64,000 bases of DNA from Psammoneis japonica (taxonomy: Eukaryota): NCBI GenBank assembly GCA_008632985.1, contig QPGO01000273.1, forward strand, positions 1-64,000, in the 5' to 3' direction. Numbering within the stretch: position 1 is the first letter of the stretch; the number at the start of each line of letters is the position of its first letter. Of the stretch, positions 21,304 through 54,743 are shown in pieces. The notes under the pieces are model-generated. The model was not told the origin of the DNA. It worked only from the letters and a program-made list of their open reading frames with translations, and searched no databases. Position numbers and translations under genes: made by a program.

Positions 21304-21580
21304 TGACAGAAAATTGAAGGCAAATGGCAAGAATTCAAACAATGACTCCTTGCTGCTGTCTAAACAGCAGATGAGTCTCCGCTCAGAGACCGTCACAGGA
21401 GCCGAAAGACGTGCAAGTCGGCACAATCGGGCTGCTGTTGTTGTTCTTGTGAGCCTTGTGGCTCGAAAGCAAACTGCATCGCGCGCAAACGCGCGGAACT
21501 AAAGCACACAAAACTGTGCGCGGCAAACTAAACAGTGCGCGACATTTCGCAGGCACCCAAATCCTGTTCAAATCCTGTCA
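21304..21580 (-). repeat. 3' LTR of copia copy 1
   Basis: Direct repeat of 28261-28537; purine tract (ctcccca on +) adjacent from 21581. Confidence 0.97.
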
Positions 21581-24500
21581 CTCCCCAGTTTGCTTGAGGA
21601 GTCACAGAAACAGATTCGACTTCGGATGAAATGAAGTTCCAGAACATGAGGGGGCGGAGAAGGTCCCAGATTTGGGAGTGACCCCAATGCTTGCTGAGGA
21701 TGTCAGCAGGGTTGCGGGAGCCTTCGATGAAGTGGAGCTCAAGGCAACCAGAGGCAATTGCCTCACGCACACGGTGGAACGACAGTGCGGGGTGTCGCTT
21801 GTGTAACTTGGAGTGCGGGATGGTGGCACTGTCTACAACCGACTTGTTGTCACCGAACATGTGACTGACATTGCGGATCGGGACGCCAAGGCAACGCAGG
21901 GTGATGCGCAGGTCAACAATCTGCTCAACACAAGTCCTTGCGGCAACAAATTCAGACCCGCAGGTCGCAGTCTCCATGGTGGCTTGCTTCTTAGAGAACC
22001 AATCAGCCGGGAATTTGTTGAGGAAGTGGAGCATTCCCATGACAGAGCGTCCGGTGAGCATGCAATGGTGCAAGTTTGCATCGACACAGTGGGTGGCAGT
22101 GACGAACTTGCCAAGGGGCGGTGGAGCGTCCTTCGGGATCATCTCTTCTGCTTCGCCGCACACGGAATGCATCCATTCACAGGCCGGAGCAGGGAGATCC
22201 GAATGGTCGGGCTCTTCCGTGCAAACGCGGAGAGCGCCGTGTCGCATCCTGGAGAGGCACCCACAGACGCGTTTGGCATGATCCAAGTGGCCTTGACGGG
22301 GCGCAGCTCGGAAGCTAGAGAGTGACATGACGGCCGTGGCAATGTCAATTCGACCAAGGGACACTGCCCATTGGAGTGAACCAACAAGAGACTGGAACTT
22401 GTGAATGCCATCGGGTCCCAGCAGTTCGGAAGTGTCCAGTTCGGGGTGGTCACCCTTCTCCAGAGGTGACAGGGCGTTGGTGGCAGGTTTCTCCCCAAAC
22501 AGTTGGGCGCAGCTGTCGACCATGCGCTCGATGTGCTTGCGCGGAGACAGGCACAAGGTTGCGTCGGGATCCCGGGAAAAGTCGCAACCCAGATGGAACT
22601 CAATGGGTCCCGCACCCTTGAGCTTGAACTTGCACTTTTCCGTGAGAGTGTCGACGAAAGATTGAGGGTCCTTCATGGCAATGGCGAGGTCATCCACATA
22701 AACGGCAATGTGTTCACAGTGGTCGCCATTCCTGCGCATCCAAATGTCGGGTTCGGCGCGGCAGGGGAAGAAGCCTTCAGCTCGCAGGCAGTCGGCGAAG
22801 CGCTCGTGCCAGCGGAGACCGGAGCTGCGCAGTCCACACAGGGCCTTGTGGATGACAAGGATGTGTCCTTCGAGTTTGCCAAATTCGGGTCCGGCTGCAA
22901 TGTAAAGCTTCTCCTTGGTGGTGGCTTCAAGGCAGGCATTGCCAATGTCGGTGGCCCATGTCTCCAACTCGTTGAGTTCGGCCAGGAAAATCATCAGCCG
23001 AAGGCCACGGAGGGAGACTGCTCTGGAGTGGACACTGTCGACAGGTGCATCCGTGAGGTGCCCGTCGGCTACGAGTCGTGCCTTGTGGCGACCGTCGTGT
23101 TTCACGTCGTACACTGGGTGCACTCGGATCTTCTTGTGTCCCGCAGGAGGAGTGGAAGACTCGAAGGGCCCGCAGTCATGGAAGACTTCACATTCATCGA
23201 GTTGGTCCATCTCGAGATTAGTTGCGTCTCCCCATTTGCAGTTGCCGTTGCGTTCATCTAGTGACATGGCATGTTTGCAGTTTCGGGGAACTTCGCACCC
23301 GTGCTTGCAGCGAGGTGCAGTGCGGAAGGAGCGAAGCTTGGCTTGGTTGGCCATGCGAAACAGCTTCTTTTGGCCTCTCGATGGTGCGGAACCGCTTCCA
23401 GCCATCCGTGTCGAGGAGTCCGTTCTCTCGTGCATGGATGGCGCAGGTGACGGGGTCATCCTTGGCGATGATGGCAAGAGGCTCGGACGTGATCTCCCCA
23501 CTTTCCCATTCAAGCATGATGTTGTAGCTTGAGCCTTTCCAGGTTGGGTCGTGAGGCTTCAGAGGTCCTTCGTGTGACACGATGCATCGAAATTTCCAAA
23601 TGGCAGTGTCTTCATCTTCTTGCTCAATGTGATTCATGATGTCATTGCAGGCAAGGACTTCCTTGTGTTCGTCGTTGTTGACAGAGCAGATGAACTTGGT
23701 GAGCTCGGGATTGCCGTTCACTTTCCATTCGTGGTCTTCGACGGCCTTGACCATGCGAGCTCTGTGGCGTTGTCCGTCCTCTTGTGGCTGCATGAGGAAG
23801 GTGCGTCCAATGATGTCTTGCGGATCGAAAACTGGCATCTTGGGTGTCCTGATCTCCCCATCAGGAGAATCGACGGGGTTGTTGACAGGGTTGTCGTCAT
23901 GGCAAGATTTGATGATGGGTTCAGGTGGCTCCCCATCAGGAGGATCAAGACGCAGGTTTCGAACGGCAGGATCGGTGGTGGCGGAGTGGACGTTGGACCG
24001 GCAGAGGATCTTCTGAGTCTCGTCAGAGAGAATCTTGAAGGTCATCTGGTGGCCGACGTGCTCAGCAATGCCAACGAAGCGTCCACGCAACTCACGGGAT
24101 TCGGACGGCCAATCGGAGTCATCCAGGTGGAAGCACACGGGTTCCCACCAGCGAAAGCCAAGCAATGGGCTGATGTCCGGGGTGGAGCCAGTGAGAGTCT
24201 CAAGGGGCGTGCGCCAGTGGAGACGTGGGGACGCTGTGTGGTTGAGTGTGAAGCACACACACATGAGTGCCAGCAGCCATGTGTGGGCGGGCGAACCAAA
24301 ACGATCCATGACAGTGTTCGCCATGCGCTTCATGGTCTGGTGTCGACGCTCGGCAAAGTTTTGGTGTTGCTGGTGAGGCTCACTTTGCCAGCTGGAGATG
24401 AAGAGGGCCTGTAGGATCCCGAGCACTTTGTTGCTGATCTCAACTTGAGCACGGTCGCCAATGAGTTTGGATGGGGCACCACGCTCACGGATCTGATCCT

Positions 24501-27321
24501 CGAGTGTGTTGACAAACTCTTTGTCCGTCTTGGTGCCGTAGACGTCAGTGACGGCAGACTCAGTGCCAACAAACAGTTGGGCACTGGTGCAACCAGAGTC
24601 GACGGCCGGGGTGTCGGCATGGACGGTGTCAGTGGTGACAGGCTCGTTGCGGCGGTGCACATTAAGGGCGGGGTTGGGTGATTTGCAGGCCTTCCTAAGG
24701 TGTGCACCGGCGGGCATGCGGGCGCACTGCGTGGTGCAGTCAAAAGTACGACGGACCGTGTCGGCAGGTGGGAAGCCAAAGTGAGGCCGAAGAGACTCGA
24801 AGGGCAGGTCCTTGGGCTGTGCAGTGCGCTCCGGGGGCGGGACGTCGTCGTCCTTGGGGTCAATCGCGTGCAGATGACACTCGCAGAACACGTCGTCGTT
24901 CGGAATGAGGTGATCATCGAGGGCGGACGCGTGATCGGCAGACAAGGAAGCGGACATGATGGTCTCGTTGACAACGACACGATGACGGTGGTTGCCGCAT
25001 TCGTCAAACTGCAACATGCAGCTACCAACAAGAGTCAATGCATCACGGCGATGTGTCACAGCCTTTAAATGTCACAAAGGGCGTGACAAAAACAACCTTT
25101 TGTCTGCATGCATGCTTCAAAACAGGTTGGCAGTGGGATCGTCCTGCAGGTCAGAGATCGCGTCGTACCACTGGTCGTCATCAGTGACAGAGTGATCGAG
25201 GATGGAAGGATCCCATGTGTCATCACCGGTGAGGATGACATGGGGCAGGGTGTCCCATTCGGCGTCAGTGCAAGGTCGCATGGCAACACAAGGCAGGCCG
25301 GCCTTGATGTCAATGGGGATGACATGGCCATCAGGAGTGGCAACACGTTGCAAGCCGTTGGGCACCTTGACAGAGCGATCGTTGACATCCTGTTTGTGCC
25401 ATTCGAGCTGGCCGCAGGAATGGATGGTCTTGCCCTTGCCCGTGTGTGCGCACTGATGGAGGATGGCGATGATGGGACCACGCTGGGTCTCAATGACGGC
25501 ACCAGCGGTGACAATGGGGATGTCCACCAATTGATGGTCGTCAATGCCCTGAACGTCGACTTGGCGAGAGGTGCGTGCAATGACGCGAACGTCGTTGCCA
25601 GCAATGCCGCCGTTGGCCCCACGATCGACTAGAGTGCCAGTGCGTGTGGAGCGATGAGCAGAGGCAGAGCAAATGACATTGTGGTTGTCAACGCGGCGGC
25701 AAGTGCGGCCGTTAAGTTCTGTGTCATCGGCAGAAGCTGGCGGGGCAGAGGGAGCGGCGGATGGCCCCGGTCGACCAGCATTGGGGGCTTGGTTAGGAGA
25801 CAACAGACGGCGCAGATCACCGGGTGGCAGTGGCTTGCGCTTGGTGAGGTGTGCCAGGATGGGATTGTCCGAAGTGGCACCCACATTTGGAGTGGAGTCA
25901 TCAGAGTCAGCAGGAGTCGTGTTGGACAAGTTGACATCACCGTTGCTCCCAAGGCGTTGGTCGTGAAGGTTGGCTGTAACGGACTCATGGCAGTTGCTGT
26001 CTCGCGGGTTACGGGGAGGCGGACGAGAATGCTCAAGGATGATCGCCTTGGAGGAATGGGGCAACGAATCCCAAATCCGTTGGTGGTCGGGAGGGAGACG
26101 TTTCCATTGGTCACTGGTGAGGCTGGGACCACGGGTGTGGGCAGCATTGGCCTGAAGGACGTCAATGTCAATGTCAATGTCGTAGAACACATCGTCGGAC
26201 GGTTCCTCGGAGCAGACGTCGTGTGCGCATGTGGCGCGGCGGGGAGCTCGAGGTGTCATCTTGGGTTGAAACGCACTGTCGCATTGGGCTGCTGCGGAGA
26301 GGAGCAAGCCACAGCATTGATCGCATGTGAGGCTCTTGCCACTCTGCGTGCGATGCTGATCAGCTTGGTTCTTGACAGCACGGAGTTCCTCGACAGGGTG
26401 CACGGCATTCTCGAGCATGACGCGCTTCTGTCCTTCAGAGAAGTGGTCACTGGCCGGGATGAGTGCCTCGCACTTGCGCAACTGATCTTGCCAATGAAGG
26501 ATGAACCCGTGGGTCGGACCTTTCCAAGTGCCATCACCAAGACGTGCGGTGGTGAGGTGCGTCAGCAGGGTGGAGGACTCGACAGATGCGCGGGTGGAGG
26601 CGAGCGCGCACTCAGACAAGGCGCGGCAGACGGTCTGTGCGTCAGAAGACCCCACATTTTCGCGGATGAGAGCCTTGCCCTTGTTGGTGAGAAGGATGCG
26701 TTCGAAGACGGCGAACATGTGCTTTTGCAGTTCAGCAAAGAGCAGTTTGTCTTCGGGGCTGGTCGGTTTGTACGACGAGTCTGGGGTGCACTCGACGTCT
26801 TGGGCACGGGCTTGTGCCACAAGTGAGGTGTGCCAAGTGTGCCACTGCTTGTTGGATTTGAGAGCCGTGAAAGCGGTGGGATCACGCTTGATGCCTCGCT
26901 TGAAGTCCCACACCGGGTTGCGTGCCTTGGTCGGGTTGGTGACATGCGGAGGTGCGAGGGGTGAGCTGCCGATGGACACAGAAGACATGCAGTCGGGGCT
27001 GAGGCGGTGGGCAAGGAACTCGTCATGCGTGAACAACGAGGAGTCATTGGCAACGTCAAGACCTTTGTGTGCTTTGACAATGCACAGACCAACTGGAGCT
27101 GCTAACATGTTCTCACAACCACGGGGCAAAGGGATCACATTGGTGCCATTGTCGTGCTCAAGCGAGTCGATTTGGGACGGTGTGAACGTGAACAGTTCTT
27201 GATGCGAGTCCGTGCCGTCTTGTGCCAAAGCCAAACGGAGAGGGCTCCCAGCACCTTGGGCAAGCACGGTTCCAACAACGTGCTCGAAACCATCGGTTTG
27301 TTGCTGACGAGTGAGAACCAT
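21528..27321 (-). pseudogene. gag-pol polyprotein of copy 1, broken by a 110-bp insert carrying a stop and a 2-bp deletion ~23373
   Basis: MVLTRQQ start; protease LVDRGANGG; integrase TTDT/IGDRA/NFAERR; RT KARLVADG and YVDD; RNase H VDANL/GSEF/GDNKS/NPADILSK; many Tyr->Cys/His. Confidence 0.93.
25010..25119. mobile_element. 110-bp TG..CA insertion with 4-bp TSD (solo LTR or MITE)
   Basis: Absent from copy 2 (~51050); flanked by AAAC at 25006-25009 and 25120-25123; imperfect terminal IR; internal hairpin 25054-25088. Confidence 0.8.
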
Positions 27322-28243
27322 GGCAGACAAAAGTGGTGTCAGGACAAACAATTCTTGTTGGGAAGCGAGGGCAGACTTGAAGCTTGGGTGAGAACAGACT
27401 TGACTTGAAATGGGCTTGACTTGAAATCTTGATCCATCTTAAAATCAGAAGTCGCCGGGCTTTGCCATCCCGTTCGTTGTCAAGTGCTAAACTTCCTGTC
27501 TGGTCCGCAGAGTTGTGCCGGCACGTCCGAACCCGCAGCCAGCGGCGCTTTGGGTTGCTTGCGAGCGGAGCAGCGGGTTGCAAACCCCTGCAGGCAAGCT
27601 GACCAGAGGTGAACAAGACCCCCAAACCGTTCTCATTTTACATCGGTTGGATTTCCCGATCAGGCTGGCCAGTTGACGCAGGCGTTGGGCGCTGTGGACG
27701 AACGAACAAACGCGGGAAAGCACCCTCGCCCCAACGCAGGCTGCAATCACGGCTGCTTGCTCTCACAGTCGTCCTCGTGGACCCAGTGGAACTGCAGAGC
27801 ACCAGCAGTCCGGGGTGGATCAGGTGCAATGGACTCGGTGTGCTTGTAGAGTGGTGGCAAAACCGCAGTCCGAAGAGTGGGTGCAGGTTCTTGGCCGTGA
27901 AGACATGTGTGTGTGCACATGTCTTCAGCGACGAAGATCCTTGAATGTGCAGGGTTCTTGACCGTCAACCGATGAATGGGCACATCAAGGGATGAGGATC
28001 AAGGACAGACTTGGATGTGACCGTTGAATGCATGTCTTCAGCGATCAAAGGCAGTGCAATCAATCCAGATGTCCAGCGGCAAGGAGACTTGACGGTGACG
28101 TTAACTTCCTGCCGATGCCCTGGCATTGAATGCGCGTAGACTTGCCGATGTGTGTAGAACATGTGCGCAGGTCCACGTAGAATTGAAACAGCATTGTTGG
28201 TGAATCAACGACGATGATGGCGGTTGCTCAATGGGTTGACAAT

Positions 28244-28260
28244 GAGCAAGACTGTTGATC
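28244..28260 (-). promoter_or_regulatory. Putative primer-binding site of copy 1 (GATCAACAGTCTTGCTC)
   Basis: Immediately internal to the 5' LTR; same as the copy 2 site except one TA->CA change. Confidence 0.6.
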
Positions 28261-28537
28261 TGACAGAAAATTGAAGGCAAATGGCAAGAGTTCAAACAAT
28301 GACTCCTTGCTGCTGTCTAAATGGCAGATGAGTCTCCGCTCAGAGACCTTTGCAGGAGCCGAAAGACGTGCAAGTCGGTACAATCGGGCTGCTGTTGTTG
28401 TTCTTGTGAGCCTTGTGGCTCGAAAGCAAACTACATCGCGCGCGAACGCGCGGAACTAAAGCACACAAAACTGTGCGCGGTAAACAAAACAGCGTGCGAC
28501 ATTTCGCGCGCACCCAAATCCTGTTCAAATCCTGTCA
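28261..28537 (-). repeat. 5' LTR of copia copy 1
   Basis: TG..CA, 277 bp, repeat of 21304-21580. Confidence 0.97.
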
Positions 28538-29720
28538 ACAAAGTGCAAATCATGTGTCAGTTGACTGGAACTTTTGCACGTGGCCAGGTGGTTTGCAGAT
28601 GATGGTCAAGCACCTCTTGGATGGCAGAGCAGATTTCTCTAAGATCTGCCTCTCACTCTTTCTTGCTGGTGCGTGTGTTGCCACTGCTGCCAGTTTGTGG
28701 GGAGGTCTTGCATGTTTGTCACCTCTTGCTGTCTCACCACATCATCAGGTTGTGGCATTGTCTTGTTGCATGCTCTTCTGTGGTGCAATCTTGTCCTGGC
28801 TCACTTGGCTTGTGCAAGCCACAAACAAGCCCGCTGCATTTTTTCATCCTCGATTTGTTTTTTCTTGGCATCATGCCCACAAAAAAGTGCTGCACTTCTT
28901 CTGTGTGTGTGTGTTCAAAAATCAATGCACGAACCTCAACCATGGTGAATCTCCCACAACCACTCAATGATGCATGAGTCAACCACATGCTCTGCAAGAG
29001 TTGTCCAAACAATGTGCGCAGCGCAACTTTCATTCTGGGCTGCTTCTTTGATGATCCAAAACACACTCAAGCCAAGGAAATTGTCTGCATGCTGGCTCAG
29101 AGCTGTGGCATCAATGAGCTCATTTTGCCCCAGTTGATCTTGCCAACGTTTAACCACCACCTGTGCTGCCAAGAAAGATGTGCCAAAGGTGAAAGCTCTG
29201 AAAGATGATGATGGCTCATGTCGTTTCTCCTGTCAAATGCTCCGTCACAAAATCCAACTTGCTGTCATGCATGAAAGTGGTGGCTGCAAGACCAGAGTTG
29301 AGAAAAGACCAAGCAATGAAATGCATCTGTCATGATTGGAGCGAGGAGCTCTCTGATGACACCCTCTGCTGCACTCTCCAAAGCGTGGTGCACCCAGCGC
29401 TGCACCTGTGACCAATGCCAAGTCGAGCTCCATTGACAACCACCCATCTGTGCTCAACCCAAGCAAAGATTGGAAAGCCCAGTGGGAGGAATGGGGGGCA
29501 GGAGGGCTGGCAGAAGAAGGCATCGAAGCACAGCTGCCAAAGAGAAGGGGGAGCTGGCGGGTGGAGTGGAGAAAGGGAAGGTGGTGCAGCCATGCACAGG
29601 AGAGATGGAGGCAGCAAAGCTTTGATCGGCCACTGCAACATCAGGGGCACCAAAATAAATAAAAGAGTTGGCAAGGCAGTTGTCGACACACAGGAGAGGA
29701 GGTTGTCAAAGGAATGAAAG
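28538..29720. other. TpA/CpG-depleted degenerate sequence; right flank of copy 1
   Basis: Composition as in the other hypermutated domains. Confidence 0.65.
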
Positions 29721-30013
29721 GATTCTCCTCTAGCCGGCCGGCCCATCCCATCCGTCCCGCCCGGCCCGCCCACCGCACCGTGCACGATCAGCACGCGCGC
29801 TCACTCACAATCAGCTAGAAGTTTTGGGTTATGAGCACCAAAAAATCTGATCATGCGGATGCATGCTAGCTAGCTAGCATCATGGCCCATGGCCCATGGT
29901 GGTCCTGAAAAAAAAAAAACACTGAGAGCATTCGCAGCGTTTATTGCCGAGCTCATAATGGTGTAAAGCATCGCCATATTAGTCTATATTAGGATTCGAT
30001 AGAAATAACCACA

Positions 30014-30863: not shown

Positions 30864-31184
30864 CATTGCATAGCACAGCAACCGCAAAAGGAAGATAAAT
30901 CAATTTCATATCGTATTTGGATTTGCGTCATCCACATTCTCAGTAAAACACAAAAGGGAGACTGTTGTCAATGCGTAAGCGCAAAAAAACATATAATTTG
31001 TCACTTTTATAGGGTGGGCTCTAAACATGCATTCACAAGCAAAAATAGAATGGGAGAAGAGGCGAGTTTGACAGATATGTCTTGTTGAAATACATTGTTC
31101 AAGGATGAGCCCCATGGTCTCATGATTCCGCAGGGCGTAGCCCTAGAGTGTAGATCTGAAGTTCCTTGTCAGCTTGTTTCCAAA

Positions 31185-33868: not shown

Positions 33869-36800
33869 ATGGAGAATTTTGTGTTGGGTTTCTTCCAGGA
33901 ACAATTGAGCAAGGTGAGAAGGTTTACTCTCGGCATTCTCAGGCCTCAGGCGTTGACAGACAGCAAACATTCCATACTGTGCTAACGTGTTGTTTGTTGA
34001 CGTTGTCAATAACATAGTTCATTGTGGGATTCCGTAAAGAGCAAGTTAATGCTAATTTACTGAATGGCAAGGGCGAAATTACGGACGTGTCTCTAAACTG
34101 CGCCGCTCTGAACGATGTGCTCGCTACCGTGACACCCCTCGTAGAGCTCGAGTCTGTCTCTATATCACAGCTCGGCTTTCACGTCACGTCTTGGTCTAAT
34201 TTAAAAAAGGCTCCCATTGTCATTGATGTGGGCGACGTGAACGTGGTCATTGTAGAGCCGTTGCACTATTTGAAAAGCGGGGAGCGAAAAGAAATCCAGC
34301 AGATTTCAACCAGCGAATTGGATAGACTTGTTCAGAGTGGAGTCCGGAATGCGTTTTTGCGCGGTCCATACAACCTGTTTGATCGAATCATGGATAATTT
34401 GGCGTTGGAAATCAAATCCATTCACGTTTCGTTTCAACCGCGTGGTAAATTCAAGACTCGACGAACCGGGCCATGGACACCACCCAAGTTGGTGGCGACG
34501 CTGAAACGTGTCAAGTTTGTGGGTGTCAATGAATACGGACAAGAGGCGGATCCGGAAGAAGTGTGGCAACACAATCGTCACCATCCCAAAAACCAACCCC
34601 ATCATGAACGGACGTTTACAATATACAAGAAATTGTCAATGGAATGCACCGCATCGTTGCAACCACCTACTGAGACTCTGCCGCCTCTTGTGAAGGATGG
34701 GCAGGTGGAAATTCACTTTGCGCTTTTGAAACGGCTAAGAGATGCCGCTATTTTGGCGGTGCAAGTCGATGCTACCCTGTCCAATATTGAAGTAAAAGTC
34801 GAGGAGTCCATGGTTCCGCATCTGGCGCATGCTGTTGCAGGCTTTCAGTACTGTTTTGCAAAAGATCGTGCCTTTGAAGATCCACTCTTGGGTGATTCGT
34901 CTGCCCCTGCAGAAGTCGCCGAGAGCGTTGAAACGTCCTTATCGACATCATGCCGGAATATTCAAGTCGATGACGGTAGTTCTGGACAATCTTCTTCCGT
35001 AAATGTGAAAGGAGGTTCCACCCCAGTGTCTGAGGATGTTGAAGCGGAAGGAGACATATCTTCGTCTGACGACGATGATTATGAGGAAGACGTTCAGGCA
35101 TCATCTCAACAAATGGCGCAGCAGCAACGTCCCACGGGAGCCGCTAATCCAGCACGCACGCCCTACACATCTACGCCTTCTCGAGGGGACCGGCCGGTTC
35201 TTCTGTTACCCAACGGGATGGTCATTTATCAAAAACTCTCGCTTAGTTTATCGATTCATCACTTGTCGGTTCGTGGTATCTACAACGAACAAGCAAATGG
35301 CCATGTACAGCTCGACGTCCGAGGGCTAGTTGCGGAACTCATGTGGCCAAAGACAACCGGGGTACGAAGAATGCAATTGTTTTTGCAAAGGCCGTTGGTA
35401 TTGGTTGTTCGCGTCTTACACAATTCTTCGTGCGTCACTGCCTCTTGCAGGAGAAGGGAGCATATGGCCAGGTATCTCTATCGTATGTGTCGGTACAGGA
35501 ACGACATGGCAAGCGAAGTCGGTCCATTCTTGTGGGTGGTGTACACGATGACATCAATCTTGGACCCTTGGAAAATTCTGCTGGAGCTTTCACGGAATCC
35601 ATGGGGGATATCAACTTTCCGCTCTTTGAGAGTCGATCGATACGCGAGGACCCCCTTGGATTGCGGCATTCGTTTCCCGCGCAAGCTTTTGGTCTCAAAA
35701 CGACCGTGGACTTTTTGCCAAGCGTACGTATGCACGGAGCATTCGATTGTTGTTTGTTGACTCTGAACTTACGTGTCATCTTGTCTTTTCGCAGCCTTCT
35801 GGTGACAAGGATGATATCATGGTGCTTCATGAGGTCGGTATGGACCGATTCGCGGCAGTCGTAGACTCGGAGGCATGGTCCCGGGCATTAATGTTTCTCT
35901 TGAATAAGGATGGTGGTGGCTTTGATCCGCGATGGCATTCTGGGGACTGGGTTGATGTCTTGACTGCCGAAATGCTTGTGCATCCGTCTCAAAACTTCGT
36001 TTTCGACGATCATATTCAGCCCATGAAGGAAATATTCTTGGATGAGAACCACTTGATATCGTCAGACTTGTTCAACGTCACAGCGAGACTTTCAAACATG
36101 GAGCTTCGTATCCCTGCAGCGATAGAGGAGGATGTGCGCTCTTGTGATTTCATCATGTCAGTGTCGGAATCTATGCTGTTGGTTTCCTCTGCTCTTCCCC
36201 GGACATTCCTCAATGGCAAACTTGGCAAAAAATCGACTTCAAAAGAGGGGGGCACTTTGATTGCCTTTCCCAATGATCCTTCTGATATCTGCTACTCCAT
36301 GGAAGAAAAGGAGGACCCGTCGATTCGGCAGACTGGATCAGATATTGCTCGTACCGTTTCGACGTTCCGACTTCAACTTACCGTGCGAGGGCACTCTGTT
36401 CGAATTTCTCCCGTGATCCCCTTTTGCGATGGAGCGAAGCCGCAGCAGCTTCTATCGCCCGAGGATATTACGTTGATGGCGTGCTTCGAAGGCGAACCTC
36501 CGGACGACTCATTGGGTGCAAATCAAACGAAGCTTGCACTCTTTACGTCGATTCTTATTCAACAGGCGGAAGTCGATTGCGATTTCGATCTCTTAGCAGG
36601 GGCAATATGTACCGTCCGTCATCACGTCACGGTGATTCGCGATGCATTGGACAGCCTCAGACAAGCAGGGATTCTCCCCGAAGCTGCTCCACAAGCACCA
36701 TCTGAATCAAAGCGACTAGAGAGAATAAAAAGTGACATTAATGGCCGACGTGTGTCTGTTCGGAGGCAACTACAGAAAAGCAGGAAAGCCGGCGGACTGA

Positions 36801-42696: not shown

Positions 42697-42763
42697 CACC
42701 GTCGAGAATGGAGCTCGTTCAAACTTTTTAATGGCTTCTGAAGTCTACACAGAGATTCACTGA

Positions 42764-44610
42764 TTATTTATATGCAAGAGATTGGACTTTCACGGGAGAC
42801 GCAGATGCTCGTCGTTCACGCTCGGCCTTTATCCATGCCTCAATATCTTCCGCGGCAATTTGTTCTTCGTCATTGTCCTGTGGGTAATGTACGTCATAGT
42901 AACCTGTTTCAGCATTGTAGTCAACAATGTTTCCTGAAAACCACCCCCACGTAGGGAAATTCTTGTAAATCACGGTGCCAATGGCATACTTTGGTTCCCT
43001 CCTACTAGCCGCCACGGATGCTTCGTTTGTTTTGGGACTATCCCCAGTGCTGTCAGCTGTGCTAGACTTGCGTAGCTTTTCTTCCACGAGATATCGTTGA
43101 AACTTTCCTAGTTTTGCAATTGGGTGCCGCATCACCCAGCCATGACCCTTGTCCTCCCCGTGCTTGTCCTCAAAGGCCTTGGCCCGACTGTGCATGCTTT
43201 CAAAATCCATTGCGAGATTCACGCTCTCGCCTTTCATAAACATGATTCCATCTGGCCAACCCACGTAGGATATCCCCTCTCCTTTTGCCAGCATTTTCAC
43301 CTTGCTCATGACGGAGCGAGCGTTTGATTCGGAACAACCGTCCACGTCTGCAAGCCAAGTCTTGATTTCCTCGATCCAACCCTGCCTCGATCGGAGCTGG
43401 TCTTTTTCTTCCTCCGATAGATTCAGTGGTTCCACCGTCTGAGTAGCACTCTTTTTTGGTGTGCTTCGTTTGGCTGCTGCTTTGGCTGCCGGTTTTGCTG
43501 ACGCTTTGGTAGATACAGGCACCGTGTACTCGCTTGTTGAAGAAGTTAACGACTCCGTCTCGTCTTCAGTGCTGTCGTCCGTTTCCGTATCTTCCAGCTC
43601 CTGATTATACTCAGTCTCTAACGAACGAGCTACTGCCTGAGAAAGACTAGGAGACACTTCTGTAGGGCTCTCAGTGGTGGTAGACTTGCGTAGCTTTGTT
43701 TCCACAAGATATTGTTGAAACTTTCCTAGCTTGGTAATTGGATGCCGCATGAGCCAACCATGTCCTTTGTCTTGTCCGTAGGTGTTTTCATAGCGTTGGG
43801 CCTCACTGTGCATTCTTTCAAAATTCATGGCAAGATTGATAGGTTGATTTTCCATAAACACAACGTGGTAAGGCTCTCCAGTTTTCGAACCTTGTTCATG
43901 ACGGTACGAACGTTGGATTCGGAACAGCCGTCTACAATTTGAAGCCACGCCTCGAATTCCTTAACCCAATCCTGCCTCGACGCTAGCTCATCTTTTTCTT
44001 CTTCCGACAAATCGAGCCAGTCCAATCGAGCGGTTGCTCGCTTTTTCGGTTTGCTCCGTTTGGTAGCTTTTTTCCGCGGTTCTTGGGATACAACTGTTGT
44101 CGCCTTGCGTTTTGCAGGAGTTGAAAAATGATCTTCGTCTTCACCAAAGTCACTTTCCTCATCACTCTCTTCTTGCAACCAACCATTGTCTGCTTGAGAA
44201 GGGGGCGTCACTAACGCGGACTGTGTGGAATCGTCTTGTTGTGTCGCATCCCCTTTCTGTTCTTTCGGAGCAACCAAATCATGGTCAGATTTCTGTTGCA
44301 ACAGAACACAGGCAAAGGCACAAATGTTTGGTCTGAGTGGATCAAATCCATCTTGCTTTTTGCACCCAGGACACGCAATGGTGGACAAGGTGGGAGCGGA
44401 TGTTTGGAGACTGGCAGTCCACTCGTCAAACCAGCCGGAAAAGCACGGCTTGCAAACGCTGTATGCGCAGTGCAAACACGAGACGGGAAGTCGGGCTTCC
44501 GAAGAGTCTTTCTGCTCGTAATCCGTGTCGAATGAAGAGTTGCAGTTTGGGCATTGATATGGATTGTTCTCCATGGTTGTTGCTGTTATTGTTATTGTGT
44601 TTGATGTCAT
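42764..44610 (-). CDS. RING-like zinc finger, two copies of a ~100-aa repeat domain and a Tudor-like C-terminus; frameshift/deletion ~43875
   Basis: CPNC..CLHCAYSVCKPC..CPGC; repeat ending DKGHGWxMRHPIxKLGKFQxYLVE twice; IGTVIYKNF..GWFSGNIVDY...YYDVHY.DNDEE. Confidence 0.6.
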
Positions 44611-45481: not shown

Positions 45482-45759
45482 ACGACATGAAGAGGGAATT
45501 TATATGTGACGGTGAAACTTTGGGTGCAATGAGCTACTCTCTGGGTACGTTTTGCAATGTTGATGGGATTGAAAGCGGGTATGCCCTGATTCAAATACAG
45601 TAGAATTCATAACGTCACAATATAGAATCTATTAGAACCATGCGTTTCACCAGCAGTGCATGTATTTTAGGTTTCGGGCGGCCATCAAAATAGGGGTTTT
45701 CTAACGATAGAGCACCAGGTGCTGCGAACATAGCATGTTTAGCGGCTTGGTGCTGTGCA

Positions 45760-47632
45760 GGATCACGCACATTGAGTGGGCTGTGAGGAGATGTGTCTTG
45801 TTTCGACAGCCAGATCTGCCACCATTAGACAAAAATCCACCCGCCGCATGAGAACACACCTGATGCAACGCTCTTGGCAACAAAACGGAACTCTGGCTGA
45901 GAAGCTGTGGCAGGCCCAATTTCAACTGCTTTGTTCACAAGCTGTTGTGGACAGTTGAGAACCAGCCTCCTGCAACTTCCATGGGAGAGATGGCCAGTCA
46001 GCAACAACAAGAGTCGTTGGTGCACTCTGGCTCCTTTCTCTCTCACAAGTCCATTGAAGAATGACAGCAACCTAGAAGTGCAGCCAAGCAGATTTGTTCA
46101 TGGCAACAGGAGGGTTGTGCATTTGACCCAACAGGAGACAACCTGGCCATTGCAACTTGGACAAGTGATGCCTGCAACAAGTTGACAAGGGTGGTGTCTT
46201 GTTCAGAAAACAGCTCAAAAAACTCACTTTCTTTAAAACTAAAAACTGCCTGCAACACATCAAGCCCAACATGGAAATGGACAGCTGGGCCAACATGAGG
46301 GTTGTTGGTGTGTGAACCAAGAAGAAGTCAAAACAAAATCATGGCCAGTTTTCTGCAAAAGACAAGTGCTGGTGCTCTTTCCTCAAAACAAAGGTGCTTC
46401 AAGCAGCAGAGCACACACCATGAAATGCAGGCAGGTTCTGGCTTGTGTGGCTGCATGACCAACTTGATCCCACAGAGCTCTTCCAGAAGGAAGTTGGCAA
46501 ATGCCTGGCACACAAGTTCAGCTGAGCACCAAGAAGGTGGTGACAAGCCCTCCAGCACAACAGCTGGCATCCACCCTTGGCTCAAAGCATTCCATGCAAC
46601 ACTTCTTGATGCACTCCAAAGGCAGCATGGATGCAGCAAGGCTTGCTCTTCAAAGCACAATCTTCAACACCACAAGGGCCAACTGCATGGACAAGTTGCC
46701 AAGCTTGTGCCTGAATGCTGACTCTAAATTGGTGGCTCTGCCAAGTCCAAGCATGCCAACATGCTTCCATTGCCTTGTGCACAAAGCACTTTATGTGGTG
46801 GGAGCAGCCAGCACCAGAGGATTGAGTCTCCAACAAATGACTGCTGGCATTTGCAGGCCCAGAAAACCAGATGATTTTTCAGCTCATGGAAGTGGATTTG
46901 TGGCATCCACAGCAGACAGGTGGAAAAGCAGCAGTGCACTGCCCACAGGCCAGCCAGTCAGATGCTCAACCAGTGGTGCACAGTTGCTTGCAAGTCTCTG
47001 CCAAAAGCACAAGAAATGTGTGGAGCTGTTCTCTTTTCAACGTTGCAAGTTTTTGACGTGTGACAAATGCTGCTGGGCACATGGCTGCACAGCAATGGCC
47101 GCTGAGGCAGGGAGCCACTTCCCAAAGCATTTGGCCATGCAGAAAAAGCAGAGGTTGCCAAGTCACAGCCAAGGGCAATGATCTGTCAGGCCTCAAGCAC
47201 TGGACATGGACAAGATTCAGAGAAAGCTGGTGCTGTGCCATGTTGTGTTGTTGCCACTTGCAACCATGGAAAACTGGCTGGGTGCTGGGGTGGCATGCTG
47301 CCAGCATTGAAGACACCTTCAGGATCAAAACAATGACAGCTGCCTCCCTGCAGTGTGGCTGGAAGATCTGACCAAGGATGCAGCCAAATGGACAATGGAC
47401 AGTGAACAACTCATGCTGACCAAGGCCATGCAGGTGTCAGCACAAAATAAGTTCAACAGAAACAAGGTGTTTGCAGCCACTGGTGACAAACAACAAAAAT
47501 CACAGCAGCTGCACCATGGCAACATAAATGACAATTTCTCAACAATGACAACAACACCTTCAAGAAACATGCAACACAAACTCACAGACAAAAATGTTGA
47601 ACATTCCAGCAGAACGGGCTTGTCAGCGGGCT
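45760..47632. other. TpA/CpG-depleted degenerate domain; left flank of copy 2
   Basis: Near-absence of TA and CG starting about 280 bp after the RPL12 stop. Confidence 0.8.
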
Positions 47633-47908
47633 TGACAGGATTTGAACAGGATTTAGGTGTGCGCGAAGTATCGCGCGCTGTTTAGTTTACCGTGCACAGT
47701 TTTGTGTGCTTTAGTTCCGCGCGTTCACGCGCGATGTAGTTTGCTTTCGAGCCACAAGGCTCACAAGAATAATAACAGTAGCCCGATTATACCGACTTAC
47801 ACGTCTTTCGGCTCCTGTAACGGTCTCTGAGCGGAGACTCATCTGCTATTTAGACAGCAGTAAGGAGTTATTGTTTGAATTCTTGCCATTTGCCTTCAAT
47901 TTCTGTCA
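47633..47908 (+). repeat. 5' LTR of copia copy 2
   Basis: TGACAGG...TCTGTCA; 12 substitutions versus the 3' LTR by manual alignment. Confidence 0.97.
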
Positions 47909-47925
47909 GATTAACAGTCTTGCTC
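47909..47925 (+). promoter_or_regulatory. Putative primer-binding site GATTAACAGTCTTGCTC, complementary to a tRNA-Asn(GUU) anticodon arm
   Basis: The reverse complement GAGCAAGA-CTGTTAA-TC contains the Asn anticodon loop CTGTTAA. There is no TGG, so no pairing with the tRNA CCA end. Confidence 0.65.
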
Positions 47926-48852
47926 ATTGTCAACCCATTGAGCAACCGCCATCGTCGTCGTTGATTTACCAACGACGGTATTTCAATTCTACGTGGACCT
48001 CCGTATATATTCTACATACATCGGCAAGTCTACGCGCATTCAATACCAGGGCATCGGCAGGAAGTTAACGTCACCGTCAAGTCTCCTTACCGCTGGATAT
48101 CTGGATTGATTATACTACCTTTGGTCGCTGAAGACTTATATTCAACGGTCATATCCAAGTCTATCCTTGATCAACATCCCTTGATATACCTGTTCCTCGG
48201 TTAACGGTCAAGAACCCTACACATTCAAGGATCTTAGTCGCTGAAGACATATATATATATATATGCATGTCTTCACGGCCAAGAACCTTTATCCACTCTT
48301 CGGACTGCGGTTTTGCTGCCACTCTACAAGCACACCGAGTCCATTGCACCTGATCTACCCCGGACCACTGGTGCTCTGCAGTTCTACTAGGTCCACGAGG
48401 ACGACTGTGAGAGCAAGCAGCCGTGATCACAGCCTGCGTTGGGGCGAGGGTGCTTTCCCGCGTTTGTTCGTTCGTCCACAGCACCTGACGCCTGCGTCAA
48501 CTGGCCAGCCTGATCGGGAAATCCAACCGACATAAAAACAAGAACGGTTCGGGGGTCTTGTCCACCTCTAGTTAGCTTACCTGCAGGGGTTTACAACCCG
48601 CCACTCCGCTCGTAAGCAACCCAAAGCGCCACCAGCTGCGGGTTCGGACGTGCCGGCACAACTCTACGGACCGGATGGGAAGTTTAGCACTTGACAACGA
48701 ACGGGATGACAAAGCCCGGCGACTTCTGATTTTAAGATAGTTCAAGATTTCAAGTCAAGTCTGTTTCAAGTCAAGTCTGTTCTCACCCAAGTTTCGAGTC
48801 TGCCTTCGCTTCCCAACCAGAATTGATTGTCCTGACACCACTTTTGTCTGCC

Positions 48853-51800
48853 ATGGTTCTCACTCGTCAGCAACAAACCGATGGTTTCGAGCATGTTGTT
48901 GGAACCGTGCTTGCCCAAGGTGCTGGGAGTCCTCTTCGTTTGGCTTTGGCCCAAGACGGCACGGACTCGCATCAGGAACTGTTCACGTTCATGCCGTCCC
49001 AAATCGACTCGCTTGAGTGCGACAACGGCGCAATGCAATCCCTTTGCCCCGTGGTTGCAAGAACATGTTAGCAGCACTGGCCAGTCTGTACATTGTCAAA
49101 GCACACAAAGGTCTTGACGTTGCCAACGACTCCTCTTTGTTCACGCATGACGAGTTCCTTGCCTGCCGCCTCAGCCCCGACTGCATGTCTTCTGTGTCCA
49201 TCGGCAGCTCACCCCTTGCACCTCCACATGTCACCAACCCGACCAAGGCACGCGACCTGGTGCGAGACTTCAAGCGAGGCATCAAGCGTGATCCCACCGC
49301 TTTCACGGCTCTCAAATCTGACAAGCAGTGGCACACTTGGCACACCTCACTTGTGGCACAAGCCCGTGCCCAAGACGTCGAGTGCATTCTAGACTCGTCG
49401 TACAAACCGACCAGCCCCGAAGACAAACTGCTCTTTGCTGAACAGCAAAAGCACATGTTCGCCGTCTTCGAACGCATCCTTCTCACCGACAAGGGCAAGG
49501 CTCTCATTCGCGAAAATGTGGGGTCTTCTGACGCACAGACCGTCTGCCGCTCCTTGTCTGAGCACGCGCTTGCCTCCACCCGCGCATCTGTCGAGTCCTC
49601 CACCCTGCTCACGTACCTCACCACCGCACGTCTTGGTGATGGCACTTGGAAAGGTCCGACCCACGGGTTCATCCTTCATTGGCAAGATCAGTTGCGCAAG
49701 TGCGAGGCACTCATCCCCGCCAGTGACCACTTCTCTGAAGGACAGAAGCGCGTCATGCTCGAGAATGCCGTGCACCCTGTCGAGGAACTCCGTGCTGTCA
49801 AGAACCAAGCTGATCAGCATCGTACGCAGAGTGGCAAGAGCCTCACATACGATCAACACTGTGGCTTGCTCCTCTCCGCGGCAGCTCAGTGCGACAGCAC
49901 GTTTCAACCCAAGACGACACCTAGAGCTCCCCGACGCGCCACACACGCACACGACGTTTACTCCGAGGAACCGTCCGTCGATGTGTTCTGCGACATTGAC
50001 AGCGACATTGACGTCCTTCAAGCCAATGCTGCCTGCACCCGCGGTCCCAGCCTCACCGGTGTCCAATGGAGACGTCTCCCTCCCGACCACCAACGGCTCT
50101 GGGATTCGTTGCCCGATTCCTCCAAGGCGATCATCCTTGAGCATTCTCGTCCACCTCCCCGCAACCCGCGAGCCAGCAACTGCCATGAGTCTGTTACGGC
50201 CAACCTTCACGACCAACACCTTGGGAGTGACGGTGATGTCAACTTATCCAACACAACTCCTGCTGACTGTGGTGACTCCGCTGCACATGTGGACGCCACT
50301 TCGGATGATCCCATCCTGGCGCACCTCACCAAGCGCAAGCCACTGCCACCCGGTGATCTGCAACGTCTGTTGTCACCTAACCAAGCCCCCAATGCCAGTC
50401 GACCGGGGCCATCCACCGCTTCCTCTACCCCGCCAGCTCCTGCAGATGACACAGAACTTAACGGCCACACTTACCGCCGTGTTGACAACCACAATGTCAT
50501 TTGCTCTGCCTCTGCTCATCGCTCCACACGCACTGGCGCTCTAGTCGATCGTGGGGCCAACGGCGGCATTGCTGGCGACGACGTTCGCGTCATTGCACGC
50601 ACCTCTCGCCAAGTCGACGTTCAGGGCATTGACGATCACCAATTGGTGGACATCCCCATTGTCACCGCTGGTGCCGTCATTGAGACCCAGCGTGGTCCCG
50701 TCATCGCCATCCTCCATCAGTGCGCATGCACGGGAAAGGGCACGACCATCCATTCCTGCGGCCAGCTCGAATGGTGCAAACAGGATGTCAACGATCGCTC
50801 TGTCAAGGTGCCCAACGGCTTGCAACGTATTGCCACTCCTGATGGCTGTGTCATCCCCATTGACATCAAGGCTGGCCTGCCTTGTGTTGCCATGCGACCT
50901 TACACTGACGCCGAATGGGACACCCTGCCCCATGTCATCCTCACCGGTGATGACACATGGGACCCTTCCGTCCTCGATCACTCTGTCACTGACGACGACC
51001 AGTGGCACGACGCGATCTCTGACCACAGGACGATCCCACCGCCAACCCATTTGACGAATGCGGCAACTACCGTCACCGTGTCGTTGTCAATGAGACCATC
51101 TTGTCCGCTTCCTTGTCTGCCGATCACGCGTCCGCCCTCGATGATCACCTCATTCCGAATGACGACGTGTTCTACGAGTGTCATCTACATGCGATTGACC
51201 CCCAGGGCGATGACGTTCCACCTCCGGAGCGCACTGCACAGCCCAAGGACCCCCCCTTCGAGTCTCTTCGGCCTTGCTTTGGCTTCCTACCTGCCGATGC
51301 GGTCCGTCGTACTTTTGACTGCACCACGCAGTGCGCCCGCATGCCCGCCGGTGCACACCTTCGCAAGGCCTACAAATCACCCAACCCCGCCCTTAATGTG
51401 CACCGCCGCAACGAGCCTGTCGCCACTGACACCGTTTGTGCCGACACCCCGGCCGTCGACTCTGGTTGCACCAGCGCCCAACTGTTTGTTGGCACCGAGT
51501 CTACCGTCACTGACGTCTACGGCACTAAGACGGACAAAGAGTTTGTCAACACACTCGAGGATCAGATCCGTGAACGTGGTGCCCCATCCAAACTCATTGG
51601 CGACCGTGCTCAAGTTGAGATCAGCAACAAAGTGCTCGGGATCCCACGCGCCCTCTTCATCTCCAGCTGGCAAAGTGAGCCTCACCAGCAACACCAAAAC
51701 TTTGCCGAGCGTCGACACCAGACCGTGAAGCGCATGGCGAACACTGTCATGGACCGTTTTGGTTCGCCCGCCCACACATGGCTGCTGGCGCTCATGTGCG

Positions 51801-54520
51801 TGTGCTTCACACTCAACCACACAGCGTCCCCACGTCTCCACTGGCGCACGCCCCTCGAGACTCTCACTGGATCCACCCCGGACATCAGCCCATTGCTTCG
51901 CTTTCACTGGTGGGAACCAGTGCACTTCCACCTCGATGACTCTGATTGGCCGTCCGAATCCCGTGAGTTGCGTGGACGCTTCGTTGGCATTGCTGAGCAC
52001 GTCGGCCACCAGATGACCTTCAAGATCCTATCTGACGAGACTCAGAAGATCCTCTGCCGGTCCAACGTTCGCTCCGCTACCCCCGATCCTGCCGTTCGAA
52101 ACCTGCGTCTTGATCCTCCTGATGGGGAGCCACCTGAACCCATCATCAAATCTCGCCATGACGACAACCCCGTCGATTCTCCTGATGGGGAGATCAGGAC
52201 ACCCAAGATGCCAGTTTTCGATCCGCAAGACATCATTGGACGTACCTTCCTCATGCAGCCACAAGAGGACGGACAACGCCACAGAGCTCGCATCGTCAAG
52301 GCCGTCGAAGACCACGAATGGAAAGTGAACGGCAATCCCGAGCTCACTAAGCTCGTCTGCTCTGTCAACAATGACGAACACGAGGAAGTCCTTGCCTGCA
52401 ATGACATCATGAATCACATTGAGCAAGAAGACGAAGACACCACCATTTGGAAATTTCGACGCATCGCATCACACGAAGGACCTCTGAAGCCTCACGACCC
52501 AACCTGGAAAGGCTCAAGCTACAACATCATGCTTGAATGGGAAAGTGGGGAGATCACGTCCGAGCCTCTTGCCATCATCGCCAAGGACGACCCCGTCACC
52601 TGTGCCATCTATGCACGAGAGAACGGACTCCTCGACACGGATGGCTGGAAGCGGTTCCGCACTGTCGCGAGGCACCAAAAGAAGCCATTTCGCATGGCCA
52701 ACCAAGCCAAGCTTCGCTCCTTCCGCACTGCACCTCGCTACAAGTACGGATACGAAGTTCCCCGGAACTACAAACACGCCATGTCACTAGACGAACGCAA
52801 CGGCAACCGCAAGTGGGGAGACGCAACTAATCTCGAGATGGACCAACTCGACGAATACGAAGTCTTCCATGACTGCGGGCCCTTCAAGTCTTCCACTCCT
52901 CCTGCGGGACACAAGAAGATCCGAGTGCACCTGGTGTGCGACGTGAAACACGACGGTCACCACAAGGCACGACTCGCAGCCGACGGGCACCTCACGGACG
53001 TACCCATCGACAGTGTCTGCTCCGGAGTAGTCTCCCTCCGTGGCCTTCGGCTGATGATTTTCCTGGCCGAACTCAACGAGCTGGAGACATGGGCCACCGA
53101 CATTGGCAATGCCTGCCTTGAAGCCACCACCAAGGAGAAGCTTTACATTGTAGCTGGACCCGAATTTGGCAAACTCGAAGGACACATCCTTGTCATCCAC
53201 AAGGCACTGTGTGGACTGCGCAGCTCCGGTCTCCGCTGGCACGAGCACTTCGCCGACTGCCTGCGAGCTGAAGGCTTCTTCCCCTGCCGCGCCGAACCCG
53301 ACATTTGGATGCGCAGGAACGGCGACCACCATGAATGCATTGCCGTTTATGTGGATGACCTCGCCATTGCCATGAAGGACCCTCAATCTTTCGTCGACAC
53401 TCTCACGGAAAAGTGCAAGTTCAAGCTCAAGGGTGCGGGACCCATTGAGTTCCATCTGGGTTGCGACTTTTCCCGGGACCCCGACGGAACCTTGTGCCTG
53501 TCTCCGCGCAAGTACATCGAGCGCATGGTCGACAGTCATGCCCGACTGTTTGGGGAGAAACCTGCCACCAACGCCCTGTCACCTCTAGAGAAGGGTGACC
53601 ACCCCGAACTGGACACTTCCGAACTGCTGGGACCCGATGGCATTCACAAGTTCCAGTCTCTTGTTGGTTCACTCCAATGGGCAGTGTCCCTTGGTCGAAT
53701 TGACATCACCACGGCTGTCATGTCACTCTCTAGCTTCCGAGCTGCGCCCCGTCAAGGCCACTTGGATCGTGCCAAACGCGTCTGTGGGTGCCTCTCCAAG
53801 ATGCGACACGGTGCTCTCCGCGTTCGCACGGAAGAGCCCGACCATTCGGATCTCCCTGCTCCGGCCTATGAATGGATGCATTCCGTGCATGGTGAAGCAG
53901 AAGAGATGATCCCGAAGGACGCTCCACCGCCCCTTGGCAAGTTCGTCACTACCACCCACTACGTCGATGCAAACTTGTGCCATTGCATGCTCACCGGACG
54001 CTCTGTCATGGGAATGCTCCACTTCCTCAACAAATTCCCGGCTGATTGGTTCTCTAAGAAACAAGCCACCGTGGAGACTGCGACCTGCGGGTCTGAATTT
54101 GTTGCCGCAAGGACTTGTGTTGAGCAGATTGTCGACCTGCGCATCACCCTGCGCTGCCTTGGCGTCCCGATCCGTAACGTCAGTTGCATGTTCGGTGACA
54201 ACAAGTCGGTTGTAGACAGTGCCACCATCCCGCACTCCAAGTTACACAAGCGACACACCGCACTGTCGTTCCACCGTGTGCGCGAGGCAATTGCCTCTGG
54301 TTGCCTTGAGTTCCACTTCATCGAAGGCTCCCGCAACCCTGCTGACATTCTCAGCAAGCATTGGGGTTGCTCCCAAATCTGGGACCTTCTCCGCCCCCTC
54401 ATGTTCTGGAACTTCATTCCATCCGAAGTCGAATCTGTTTCTGTGGCTCCTCAAGCAAACTGGGGAGTGACAGGATTTGAACAGGATTTAGGTGCGCGCG
54501 AAGCATCGCGCGCTGTTTAG
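48853..54520 (+). pseudogene. gag-pol polyprotein of copy 2; 1-bp deletions ~49030 and ~51025
   Basis: Same PR/IN/RT/RH motifs as copy 1; the 1139-aa IN-RT-RH ORF ends inside the 3' LTR. Confidence 0.93.
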
Positions 54521-54743
54521 TTTACCGTGCACAGTTTTGTGTGCTTTAGTTCCGCGCGTTCACGCGCGATGCAGTTTGCTTTCGAGCCACAAGGCTCACA
54601 AGAATAACAACAGTAGCCCGATCACACTGACTTGCACGTCTTTCGGCTCCTGTGACGGTCTCTGAGTGGAGACTCATCTGCCATTTAGACAGCAGTAAGG
54701 AGTCATTGTTTGAATTCTTGCCATTTGCCTTCAATTTCTGTCA
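54468..54743 (+). repeat. 3' LTR of copia copy 2
   Basis: Direct repeat of 47633-47908. Confidence 0.97.

Follow-up and report, generated by a model that had tools for sequence, protein, structure and literature searches.

Within a 64-kb window (positions 1 to 64,000 of contig QPGO01000273.1, the whole stretch of DNA that was analysed and the scope of all composition and locality results below), the span 21304-54743 was bounded by two full-length copies of one long terminal repeat (LTR) retrotransposon in opposite orientation, which we termed A and B. In our best explanation, which we consider likely, A and B were separate insertions of a very abundant Ty1/copia family that were hit after integration by a fast and local process producing A:T>G:C transitions restricted to TpA steps. 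A phenomenon of this kind has already been described once, in another lineage, and the present case was probably a second lineage. The new features were the retrotransposon targets, the near-saturation, the location in CpG-losing domains, the preference for TAY (Y, pyrimidine) and the patchiness.

The LTRs of both copies were 276-277 nt long and, read directly, had TG and CA ends. Each copy possessed a polypurine tract ending in GGGGAG on the 5' side of the 3' LTR and a primer-binding region on the 3' side of the 5' LTR, and the polyprotein had a match to the RVT_2 (Ty1/copia) domain in Pfam with an E-value of 1.2e-24, although no Pfam match to an integrase was obtained in it. With the 5-bp target-site duplications, these features identified the element as a Ty1/copia LTR retrotransposon. 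Since each copy had its own 5-bp duplication, A and B were separate insertions and not parts of a segmental duplication. Both copies were broken by frame changes, and B lacked 114 bp that were present in A. Database relatives of the polyprotein numbered 1832, and the best of them were 57-68% identical and mostly 1850-1900 residues long. The blastn and tblastn searches of the window revealed no family members besides A and B. In run X1, 13,919 contigs were at least 85% like B, and their summed depth over the element was 42,000-175,000 compared to about 60 in the unique flank. Therefore, the family was very abundant. Run X2 hardly covered the element, and run X3 contained only fragments of other copies.

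A and B were 94.0% identical, and 367 of the 424 substitutions between them were transitions. A total of 305 substitutions were changes among TA, TG, CA and CG, that is, from one pyrimidine-purine (YpR) step to another; they included 48 TA/TG, 48 TA/CA, 57 CG/TG and 44 CG/CA differences as well as 54 TG/CA double swaps. Among the bases outside any YpR step, A and B differed at 68 of 3486 (1.95%), and collapsing the YpR steps to one symbol raised the identity to 97.3-98.2%. The observed/expected (obs/exp) ratio of TpA was 0.13 in A and 0.37 in B, and that of CpG was 0.87 and 0.95, respectively; the G+C content (GC) was 56-59% in the copies compared to about 48% around them. The differences of the X1 contigs from B were A>G (70), T>C (65), C>T (43), G>A (43) and transversions (32 in all), with many adjacent CA/TG swaps. 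Copy A contained 10 TAA, 15 TAG and 126 TGA trinucleotides, TGA being the main stop trinucleotide left in it. Since the loss of TA erases the TAA and TAG stops, as many as 46 open frames of at least 150 residues were found in 34 kb, on both strands and in several frames.

The direction of change was read from an alignment of 81 intact relatives (1800-1950 residues, picked by length from the 120 matches listed), with the codons of A and B mapped onto 748 columns of at least 80% conservation. In A, Tyr was kept in 4 of 39 conserved Tyr columns and was replaced by Cys (18), His (12), Phe (2), Trp (1), Gln (1) or Thr (1). Copy B kept it in 12 of 38 columns, with Cys (16), His (7), Phe (2) or Trp (1) in the others. 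Accordingly, His or Cys accounted for 30 of the 35 changed Tyr columns in A and 23 of the 26 in B. The other conserved residues were kept at 621 of 705 positions in A and 650 of 708 in B (88-92%), and the contrast with Tyr was highly significant (Fisher test, p = 6e-26 for A and 5e-18 for B). At these positions, the intact relatives thus encoded Tyr (at least 80% of the 81 sequences) rather than Cys, His or Arg. None of the 120 matches listed was hypermutated; their lowest Tyr content was 2.86%, compared to 1.37% in B. Of the 59 conserved Arg columns, six in A and three in B were lost to His, Cys or Gln, and Arg did not replace His, Cys, Gln or Trp in any of their conserved columns. Therefore, the CG/TG and CG/CA differences ran from CG to TG or CA, and back-mutation of TG or CA to CG was ruled out as the source of the high GC. 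Thus, TG and CA were the end points of two one-way flows, of which that from TA was very fast and that from CG was slower.

The A/G differences between the copies depended strongly on the 5' neighbour: they were found at 48 of 537 sites after T (8.9%), at 10 of 654 after A (1.5%) and at 9 of 750 after G. The two possible outcomes were nearly equal, with TG:CA counts of 74:70 in A and 28:32 in B, and no regional TG/CA skew was observed. When each strand of a TA site was counted as a separate exposure, 42 of 77 TAC, 26 of 51 TAT, 16 of 63 TAG and 6 of 55 TAA were mutated (TAY compared to TAR, where R is purine, p = 2e-8). Mutation had affected 30 of the 33 TA sites that read TAY on both strands, compared to 11 of the 28 that did so on neither. 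A preference for 5'-TAY-3' is the same as a preference for RTA on the opposite strand. We also considered strand-coordinated bursts in A and rejected them: one subset had 36 runs of like outcomes compared to 46 expected (p = 0.02), but the full set had 70 compared to 73, so that any clustering was weak at most.

The TpA>TpG/CpA changes struck A and B independently. This conclusion was supported by the 23 Tyr codons that were mutated in both copies, 13 with the same outcome and 10 with opposite outcomes, where about 54% of same outcomes would be expected for independent hits. The timing was suggested by the LTRs, because an element inserts with two identical LTRs. The LTR pair of B had 12 differing sites, nine of TA type, three of CG type and none of any other type. 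In the LTR pair of A there were 15 such sites: three of TA type, four of CG type, four in two CA/TG doubles and four outside YpR steps. After collapsing the YpR steps, the LTRs of B were identical at 277 of 277 positions and those of A were 97.5% identical. Since the LTR pairs of one element differed almost only at YpR steps, we infer that the changes arose on DNA after integration. Individual TA sites of the LTR were mutated in three of the four LTRs with differing outcomes. Judged from the Tyr codons, a TAY site had taken 2.14 hits in copy A and 1.07 in copy B, compared to 0.0098 per copy for an ordinary site. Thus, the TpA process outpaced the background about 100-200 times and the CpG decay about 15 times, and the CpG decay itself exceeded the background about 5-13 times.

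The initial annotation of this stretch, made from the sequence alone, had proposed most of this picture. All 18 peptide strings that it quoted were found at corresponding places in A and B, and the loss of Tyr from both copies, the origin of the changes on DNA, their occurrence at TpA on either strand and independently in each copy, and the enrichment of A>G at TpA over other contexts agreed with the counts given above. The same was true for its statement that CpG was still abundant in the copies and for its view of the CpG loss as a separate process, which was also slower.

The process was also patchy within an element. In the first 1000 alignment columns of B (the 5' LTR and the leader), 57 TA steps were kept and at most 8 were visibly lost, compared to 66 and 52 in the rest of the copy (p = 7e-6). 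The first 1 kb of B had four CpG losses compared to no TA-only losses. This sparing bears on whether the activity was irregular or episodic, and gene conversion could give the same pattern.

Composition maps of the window (1-kb bins, with 100-bp bins at the borders) revealed that the process was local. In the gene-rich stretches at 7-21 kb and 30-45.9 kb, the TpA ratio was 0.4-0.7 and the CpG ratio was about 1. The open reading frames (ORFs) of the gene-rich parts had TpA ratios of 0.47-0.66, and the non-ORF DNA there had 0.54-0.76 with CpG of 0.92-1.04. Since this non-ORF DNA was undepleted, a genome-wide neutral bias failed to explain the pattern. On the other hand, four domains (about 1000-6700, 45900-47627, 54749-56000 and 57000-62000) were nearly devoid of both TA and CG and had TG and CA near twice the expectation. 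The borders were sharp: TA and CG vanished together at about 45900, next to intergenic 100-bp bins with 4-9 TA, and reappeared together at about 6700-6800. Copy B lay inside one of these older domains. Thus, the confinement to particular domains, as the initial annotation described it, was evident. It had also described the older neighbouring DNA as repeats that had lost TA and CG; the loss was confirmed, but the repeat nature was not, because 97 ORFs of these domains had no transposon domain in Pfam and, with or without YpR collapsing, the domains resembled neither one another nor the copia copies. Its claim that repeats as such were targeted was not supported either. The copia family was very abundant. 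The TA/CG-free segment 47000-47561, the one such segment covered by the reads, had a contig depth of 60-111, near single copy (the depth was about 600 at 54868-55148), and the closest described analogue, according to the main text of its report, strikes a single-copy viral insertion.

From these data, we propose the following mechanism. After integration, A:T>G:C transitions restricted to TpA steps would act on both strands, favouring 5'-TAY-3'. The process would be aimed at particular domains, such as transposons and other silent or foreign DNA, sparing the neighbouring genes and intergenic DNA and acting patchily within an element. Tyr codons would become Cys or His codons, and TA-containing signals as well as the TAA and TAG stops would be erased. 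With CpG decay added, every palindromic YpR step would end as TG or CA. The process would be of the same kind as the de novo mutation seen in mutation-accumulation lines of the chlorarachniophyte Bigelowiella natans.

TpA hypermutation in those lines has been described in a bioRxiv preprint (Mettrop et al., 10.64898/2026.01.13.699255), on whose main text we rely here. Two integrated viral regions mutated at about 6e-7 per site per generation, 1000 times faster than the rest of the genome. As many as 230 of the 231 de novo mutations in these regions were A>G or T>C, all placed on TpA by the authors, and the viral-region mutations occurred in just 11 of the 15 lines. Reverse-transcriptase and DDE domains were enriched among the low-TpA genes of this species, and the authors proposed adenine deamination in DNA by an ADAT2 homologue. 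The main text did not mention CpG, retrotransposons, diatoms or trinucleotide context (10.64898/2026.01.13.699255). As far as this text allows comparison, the two cases shared the excess of A>G and T>C with TpA becoming TpG or CpA according to strand (here plus a separate CG>TG/CA component), the restriction to certain regions derived from foreign or mobile DNA with a rate far above the rest (here, of the 64-kb window), and the kilobase-scale signature of depleted TpA and enriched CpA and TpG. The activity in B. natans was irregular rather than constitutive, which the patchiness within B may resemble. The differences from the same main text were also clear. The targets here were LTR retrotransposons of a very high-copy family, compared to single-copy inserts of giant viruses and virophages. 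The TpA ratio was 0-0.13, near saturation, compared to 0.45 in the B. natans region derived from a nucleocytoplasmic large DNA virus. The coincidence with CpG loss and the TAY over TAR preference found here were unreported in that main text, and our case was inferred from fixed differences, in contrast to mutations watched in culture. The organism differed as well: the host genes here were long open frames, and the best named relative of one of them, encoding an AAA ATPase, was from a diatom. By these similarities the lineage was probably a stramenopile, and a diatom-like assignment was plausible but weak.

The initial annotation knew of no description of such a process in diatoms. This part stood, as our literature search brought up nothing on mutation of TpA to TpG or CpA in diatoms, and the main text of Maumus et al. 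2009 (PMC2806351) contained nothing relevant on transitions, RIP (repeat-induced point mutation), dinucleotides, deamination or G+C; outside diatoms, the preprint on the chlorarachniophyte had described it.

In ascomycete fungi, RIP is triggered by duplication, depends on a sexual stage and produces C:G>T:A changes, mostly at CpA, which create TpA steps and stop codons and lower the GC. The process observed here was similar in being dense, transition-only, dinucleotide-specific, in situ, on both strands and inactivating for the element, with a skewed dinucleotide signature. However, its direction was reversed, as had been noted before: TpA was destroyed (0.13-0.37), the GC rose to 56-59%, and TAA and TAG were removed. 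The slower component resembled the CpG decay caused by 5-methylcytosine (5mC), with 101 CG/TG and CG/CA differences between A and B and conserved Arg turned into His, Cys or Gln. On the other hand, TA>TG/CA is beyond the reach of 5mC decay, and in A and B this putative 5mC component lagged about 15-fold behind the TpA process.

With respect to the chemistry, our leading candidate, which we hold only tentatively, was a TadA/ADAT-type enzyme that is drawn to silenced chromatin and deaminates adenine in DNA. This enzyme family has the UAC anticodon loop as a substrate, which matches the TAC/TAT preference. Our broader proposal, which is more doubtful still, would be a TpA-directed DNA-editing defence common to distant lineages of the SAR group (stramenopiles, alveolates and Rhizaria), namely chlorarachniophytes and a stramenopile or diatom-like alga, that acts episodically via a TadA/ADAT-derived DNA deaminase with TAY preference recruited to cytosine-methylated silenced domains. 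Such a system would be nature's equivalent of the adenine base editors used in laboratories and would mirror fungal RIP.

Alternatively, it could be thymine that was attacked. A TET/JBP-type oxidase or another enzyme would modify T at TpA in silenced DNA (e.g., to 5-hydroxymethyl- or 5-formyl-uracil), and mispairing with G would give T>C; enzymes of this class could also attack 5mC at CpG. Oxidised thymine mispairs, and for a palindromic target with 50:50 outcomes, T>C in RTA fits equally with A>G in TAY. Moreover, the TA-free and CG-free states had exact common borders, which one enzyme acting on 5-methylpyrimidines would explain. However, the two losses were separable in the first 1 kb of B, where four CpG but no TA-only losses occurred, and both the modification and the enzyme would be hypothetical in this organism. 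In the main text of the preprint, the B. natans authors preferred adenine deamination as the putative cause (10.64898/2026.01.13.699255). We thus regard thymine modification as unlikely.

It was clearly less probable that no dedicated system existed and that an ordinary context-dependent bias of mutation or repair, such as an error-prone polymerase or a repair of T:G mismatches in methylated chromatin that always ends in C:G, acted on neutrally decaying transposons while selection kept TA in genes. In line with such a bias, TpA was already low (0.5-0.6) in the gene-rich parts, and the signal coincided with CpG-losing domains, a mark of methylated DNA. Yet the non-ORF DNA beside the domains was undepleted, the LTRs of B had no differences outside YpR steps compared to nine of TA type, and the rate ratio was about 100-200 (1.07-2.14 per TAY site compared to 0.0098). 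The strong TAY over TAR preference and the spared part of B also argued against it. Polymerase eta-like A>G errors at WA (W, A or T), which had been listed among the possible causes in the initial annotation, were not supported by the A/G differences, which were not raised after A (10 of 654, compared to 48 of 537 after T).

Changes made before integration had very little probability in our view. In this case, A-to-I editing of the retrotransposon RNA by an ADAR- or ADAT-like enzyme, or deamination of the cDNA, would be fixed by reverse transcription. The host deaminases ADAR (A-to-I in viral and retroelement RNA) and APOBEC3 (G>A in retroviral cDNA) act on one strand before integration and leave a strand-specific outcome, and a new insertion edited in this way would have identical LTRs. 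The process described here was similar to them in that one transition class riddled a parasitic element with a preferred 5' neighbour, but its outcomes were strand-symmetric (74:70 and 28:32, where editing of a single strand of RNA or cDNA gives only one outcome) and differed between the two LTRs of one insertion. Some TA changes were present in both LTRs of A and were therefore older than that insertion, and RNA adenosine deaminases typically edit an A that follows U, as stated in the main text of the preprint (bioRxiv 10.64898/2026.01.13.699255). Nevertheless, the LTR pairs differed mostly at TA and CG (11 and 12 YpR-type sites in A and B, respectively), the TA-free state extended over flanking domains outside the elements, and the B. 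natans analogue, according to the same text, strikes integrated DNA viruses in dividing cells.

Equally improbable was a sequencing or assembly artefact, in which a modified base at TpA was read wrongly or polishing turned the members of a 1000-copy family into mosaics: although the abundance of the family (depth of 42,000-175,000 compared to about 60) makes mis-polishing conceivable and the read platform was not on record, the same TA/TG/CA polymorphism was present across thousands of X1 contigs, one 15,033-base X1 contig covered the flank 47000-47659 with no other letters and one gap, X1 contigs reached 315 kb, which presumably needed accurate reads, random error was negligible given the agreement of B's LTRs at all non-YpR sites, and the Tyr>Cys/His changes were coherent within codons.

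Several points weigh against our preferred explanation, a TpA-restricted process acting on integrated DNA. The base-by-base analysis covered copies A and B only. Several TA changes were common to both LTRs of A (e.g., at LTR positions 23, 138, 147 and 229). Therefore, a part of the load of A was inherited from an already mutated template, which also means that mutated copies kept being copied, and this inherited part could in principle stem from an RNA or cDNA stage. Gene conversion, with a younger copy as the donor, could also account for the spared 5' part of B. For the TA/CG-free domains, a transposon origin was not borne out by the Pfam search of 97 ORFs. The palindromic target does not tell whether A or T is attacked. 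Moreover, the data fit a defence and a by-product of the chromatin state alike, and "defence" and "repeat-targeted" would be interpretive labels. Finally, base-calling error was judged unlikely from the 315-kb X1 contigs and their even depth of about 60; run X1 may be the assembly's own data, and its platform was unrecorded.

We found TpA-only hypermutation of invading DNA reported so far in one preprint and for one chlorarachniophyte. If a second lineage is indeed affected, then the process is no curiosity of one species, and it acts on retrotransposons, to saturation and in domains that lose CpG. Comparative genomics could then seek a deaminase or modifying enzyme common to the species bearing the signature, and any candidate enzyme would have to show the preference of TAY over TAR. 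The TpA process also has practical consequences. Such genomes hold long false ORFs because TAA and TAG vanish, and transposon families under the TpA process diverge too fast for ordinary repeat finders. LTR divergence is unusable for dating insertions and grossly overestimates their age, since the LTRs of B differed at 12 of 277 positions (4.3%) yet were identical outside YpR steps.

Table 1. Coordinates of the retrotransposon copies, their parts and the composition domains in the 64-kb window (obs/exp ratios are given for TpA and CpG).
Feature	Positions	Strand	Description
TA/CG-free domain	1000-6700		TpA obs/exp 0-0.13, CpG 0.03-0.4, TG+CA about 1.7-2.0
Gene-rich reference stretch	7000-21298		TpA 0.52 in ORFs, 0.59 outside; CpG 0.92-0.98
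Copia copy A	21304-28537	-	7234 bp; TpA obs/exp 0.13; GC 56-59%; frameshift present
3' LTR of A	21304-21580	-	polypurine tract ending in GGGGAG just before it
5' LTR of A	28261-28537	-	TG and CA ends; primer-binding region GATCAACAGT next to it
Target-site duplication of A	28538-28542	-	TTTGT (element strand); partner at 21299-21303
TA/CG-free domain holding the copy B insertion	45900-47627		sharp left border beside TA-rich intergenic DNA
Target-site duplication of B	47628-47632	+	GGGCT; partner at 54744-54748
Copia copy B	47633-54743	+	7111 bp; TpA obs/exp 0.37; frame change near 51035
5' LTR of B	47633-47908	+	none of the 9 TA-type differences of B's LTR pair derived here
Spared 5' part of B	47633-48900	+	57 TA steps kept, at most 8 losses; A lost 55 of 65 here
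RVT_2 reverse-transcriptase domain of B	52901-53536	+	residues 627-838 of P0001
3' LTR of B	54468-54743	+	9 of 9 derived TA>CA/TG changes of B's LTR pair
TA- and CG-poor domain	57000-62000		defined by composition

Two further segments, 28538-30000 and 56001-57000, had an intermediate composition (TpA 0.15-0.37, CpG 0.47-0.70) and might represent fragments of more recent age or flanks that had been mutated in part.

The host genes in the window were long uninterrupted frames. A frame with a winged-helix domain (14464-16413, plus strand) was followed by the AAA ATPase frame (16818-17924, plus strand), and the two were probably one gene since relatives of about 1000-1200 residues carried both domains. 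The best database match of the AAA ATPase gene was at 78% identity, and its best named matches were from the diatom Seminavis robusta (64%), Chromera (61%) and a haptophyte (60%). A host membrane protein had just two database matches. In the TA-normal gene-rich part, an uninterrupted open frame of 1690 residues (35630-40702, plus strand) had no Pfam match. In or beside a minus-strand ORF (42764-43960) with a PTM/DIR17-like Tudor domain lay a direct repeat (43046-43473 and 43664-44063, about 430 bp) whose two units had diverged to 69% identity (74% after YpR collapsing).

Among metagenome contigs, just two loci were related to the copia element, with 50% and 63% identity, and neither was TpA-depleted like A or B. 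Locus L001, a contig of 4027 bp with 50% protein identity, had a TpA ratio of 0.49 and a CpG ratio of 0.01 and represented CpG decay without the TpA process, in another organism. The TpA ratio of locus L002 was 0.71.

Within the LTRs, the motif TTATAC (LTR positions 156-159, about 47788-47791 in the window) was intact only in the unmutated 5' LTR of B, and the other three LTRs had TTGTAC, TTGTGC or TCACAC at this site. By its sequence, the motif could be the TATA element of the LTR promoter, which would tie the mutation to promoter loss.

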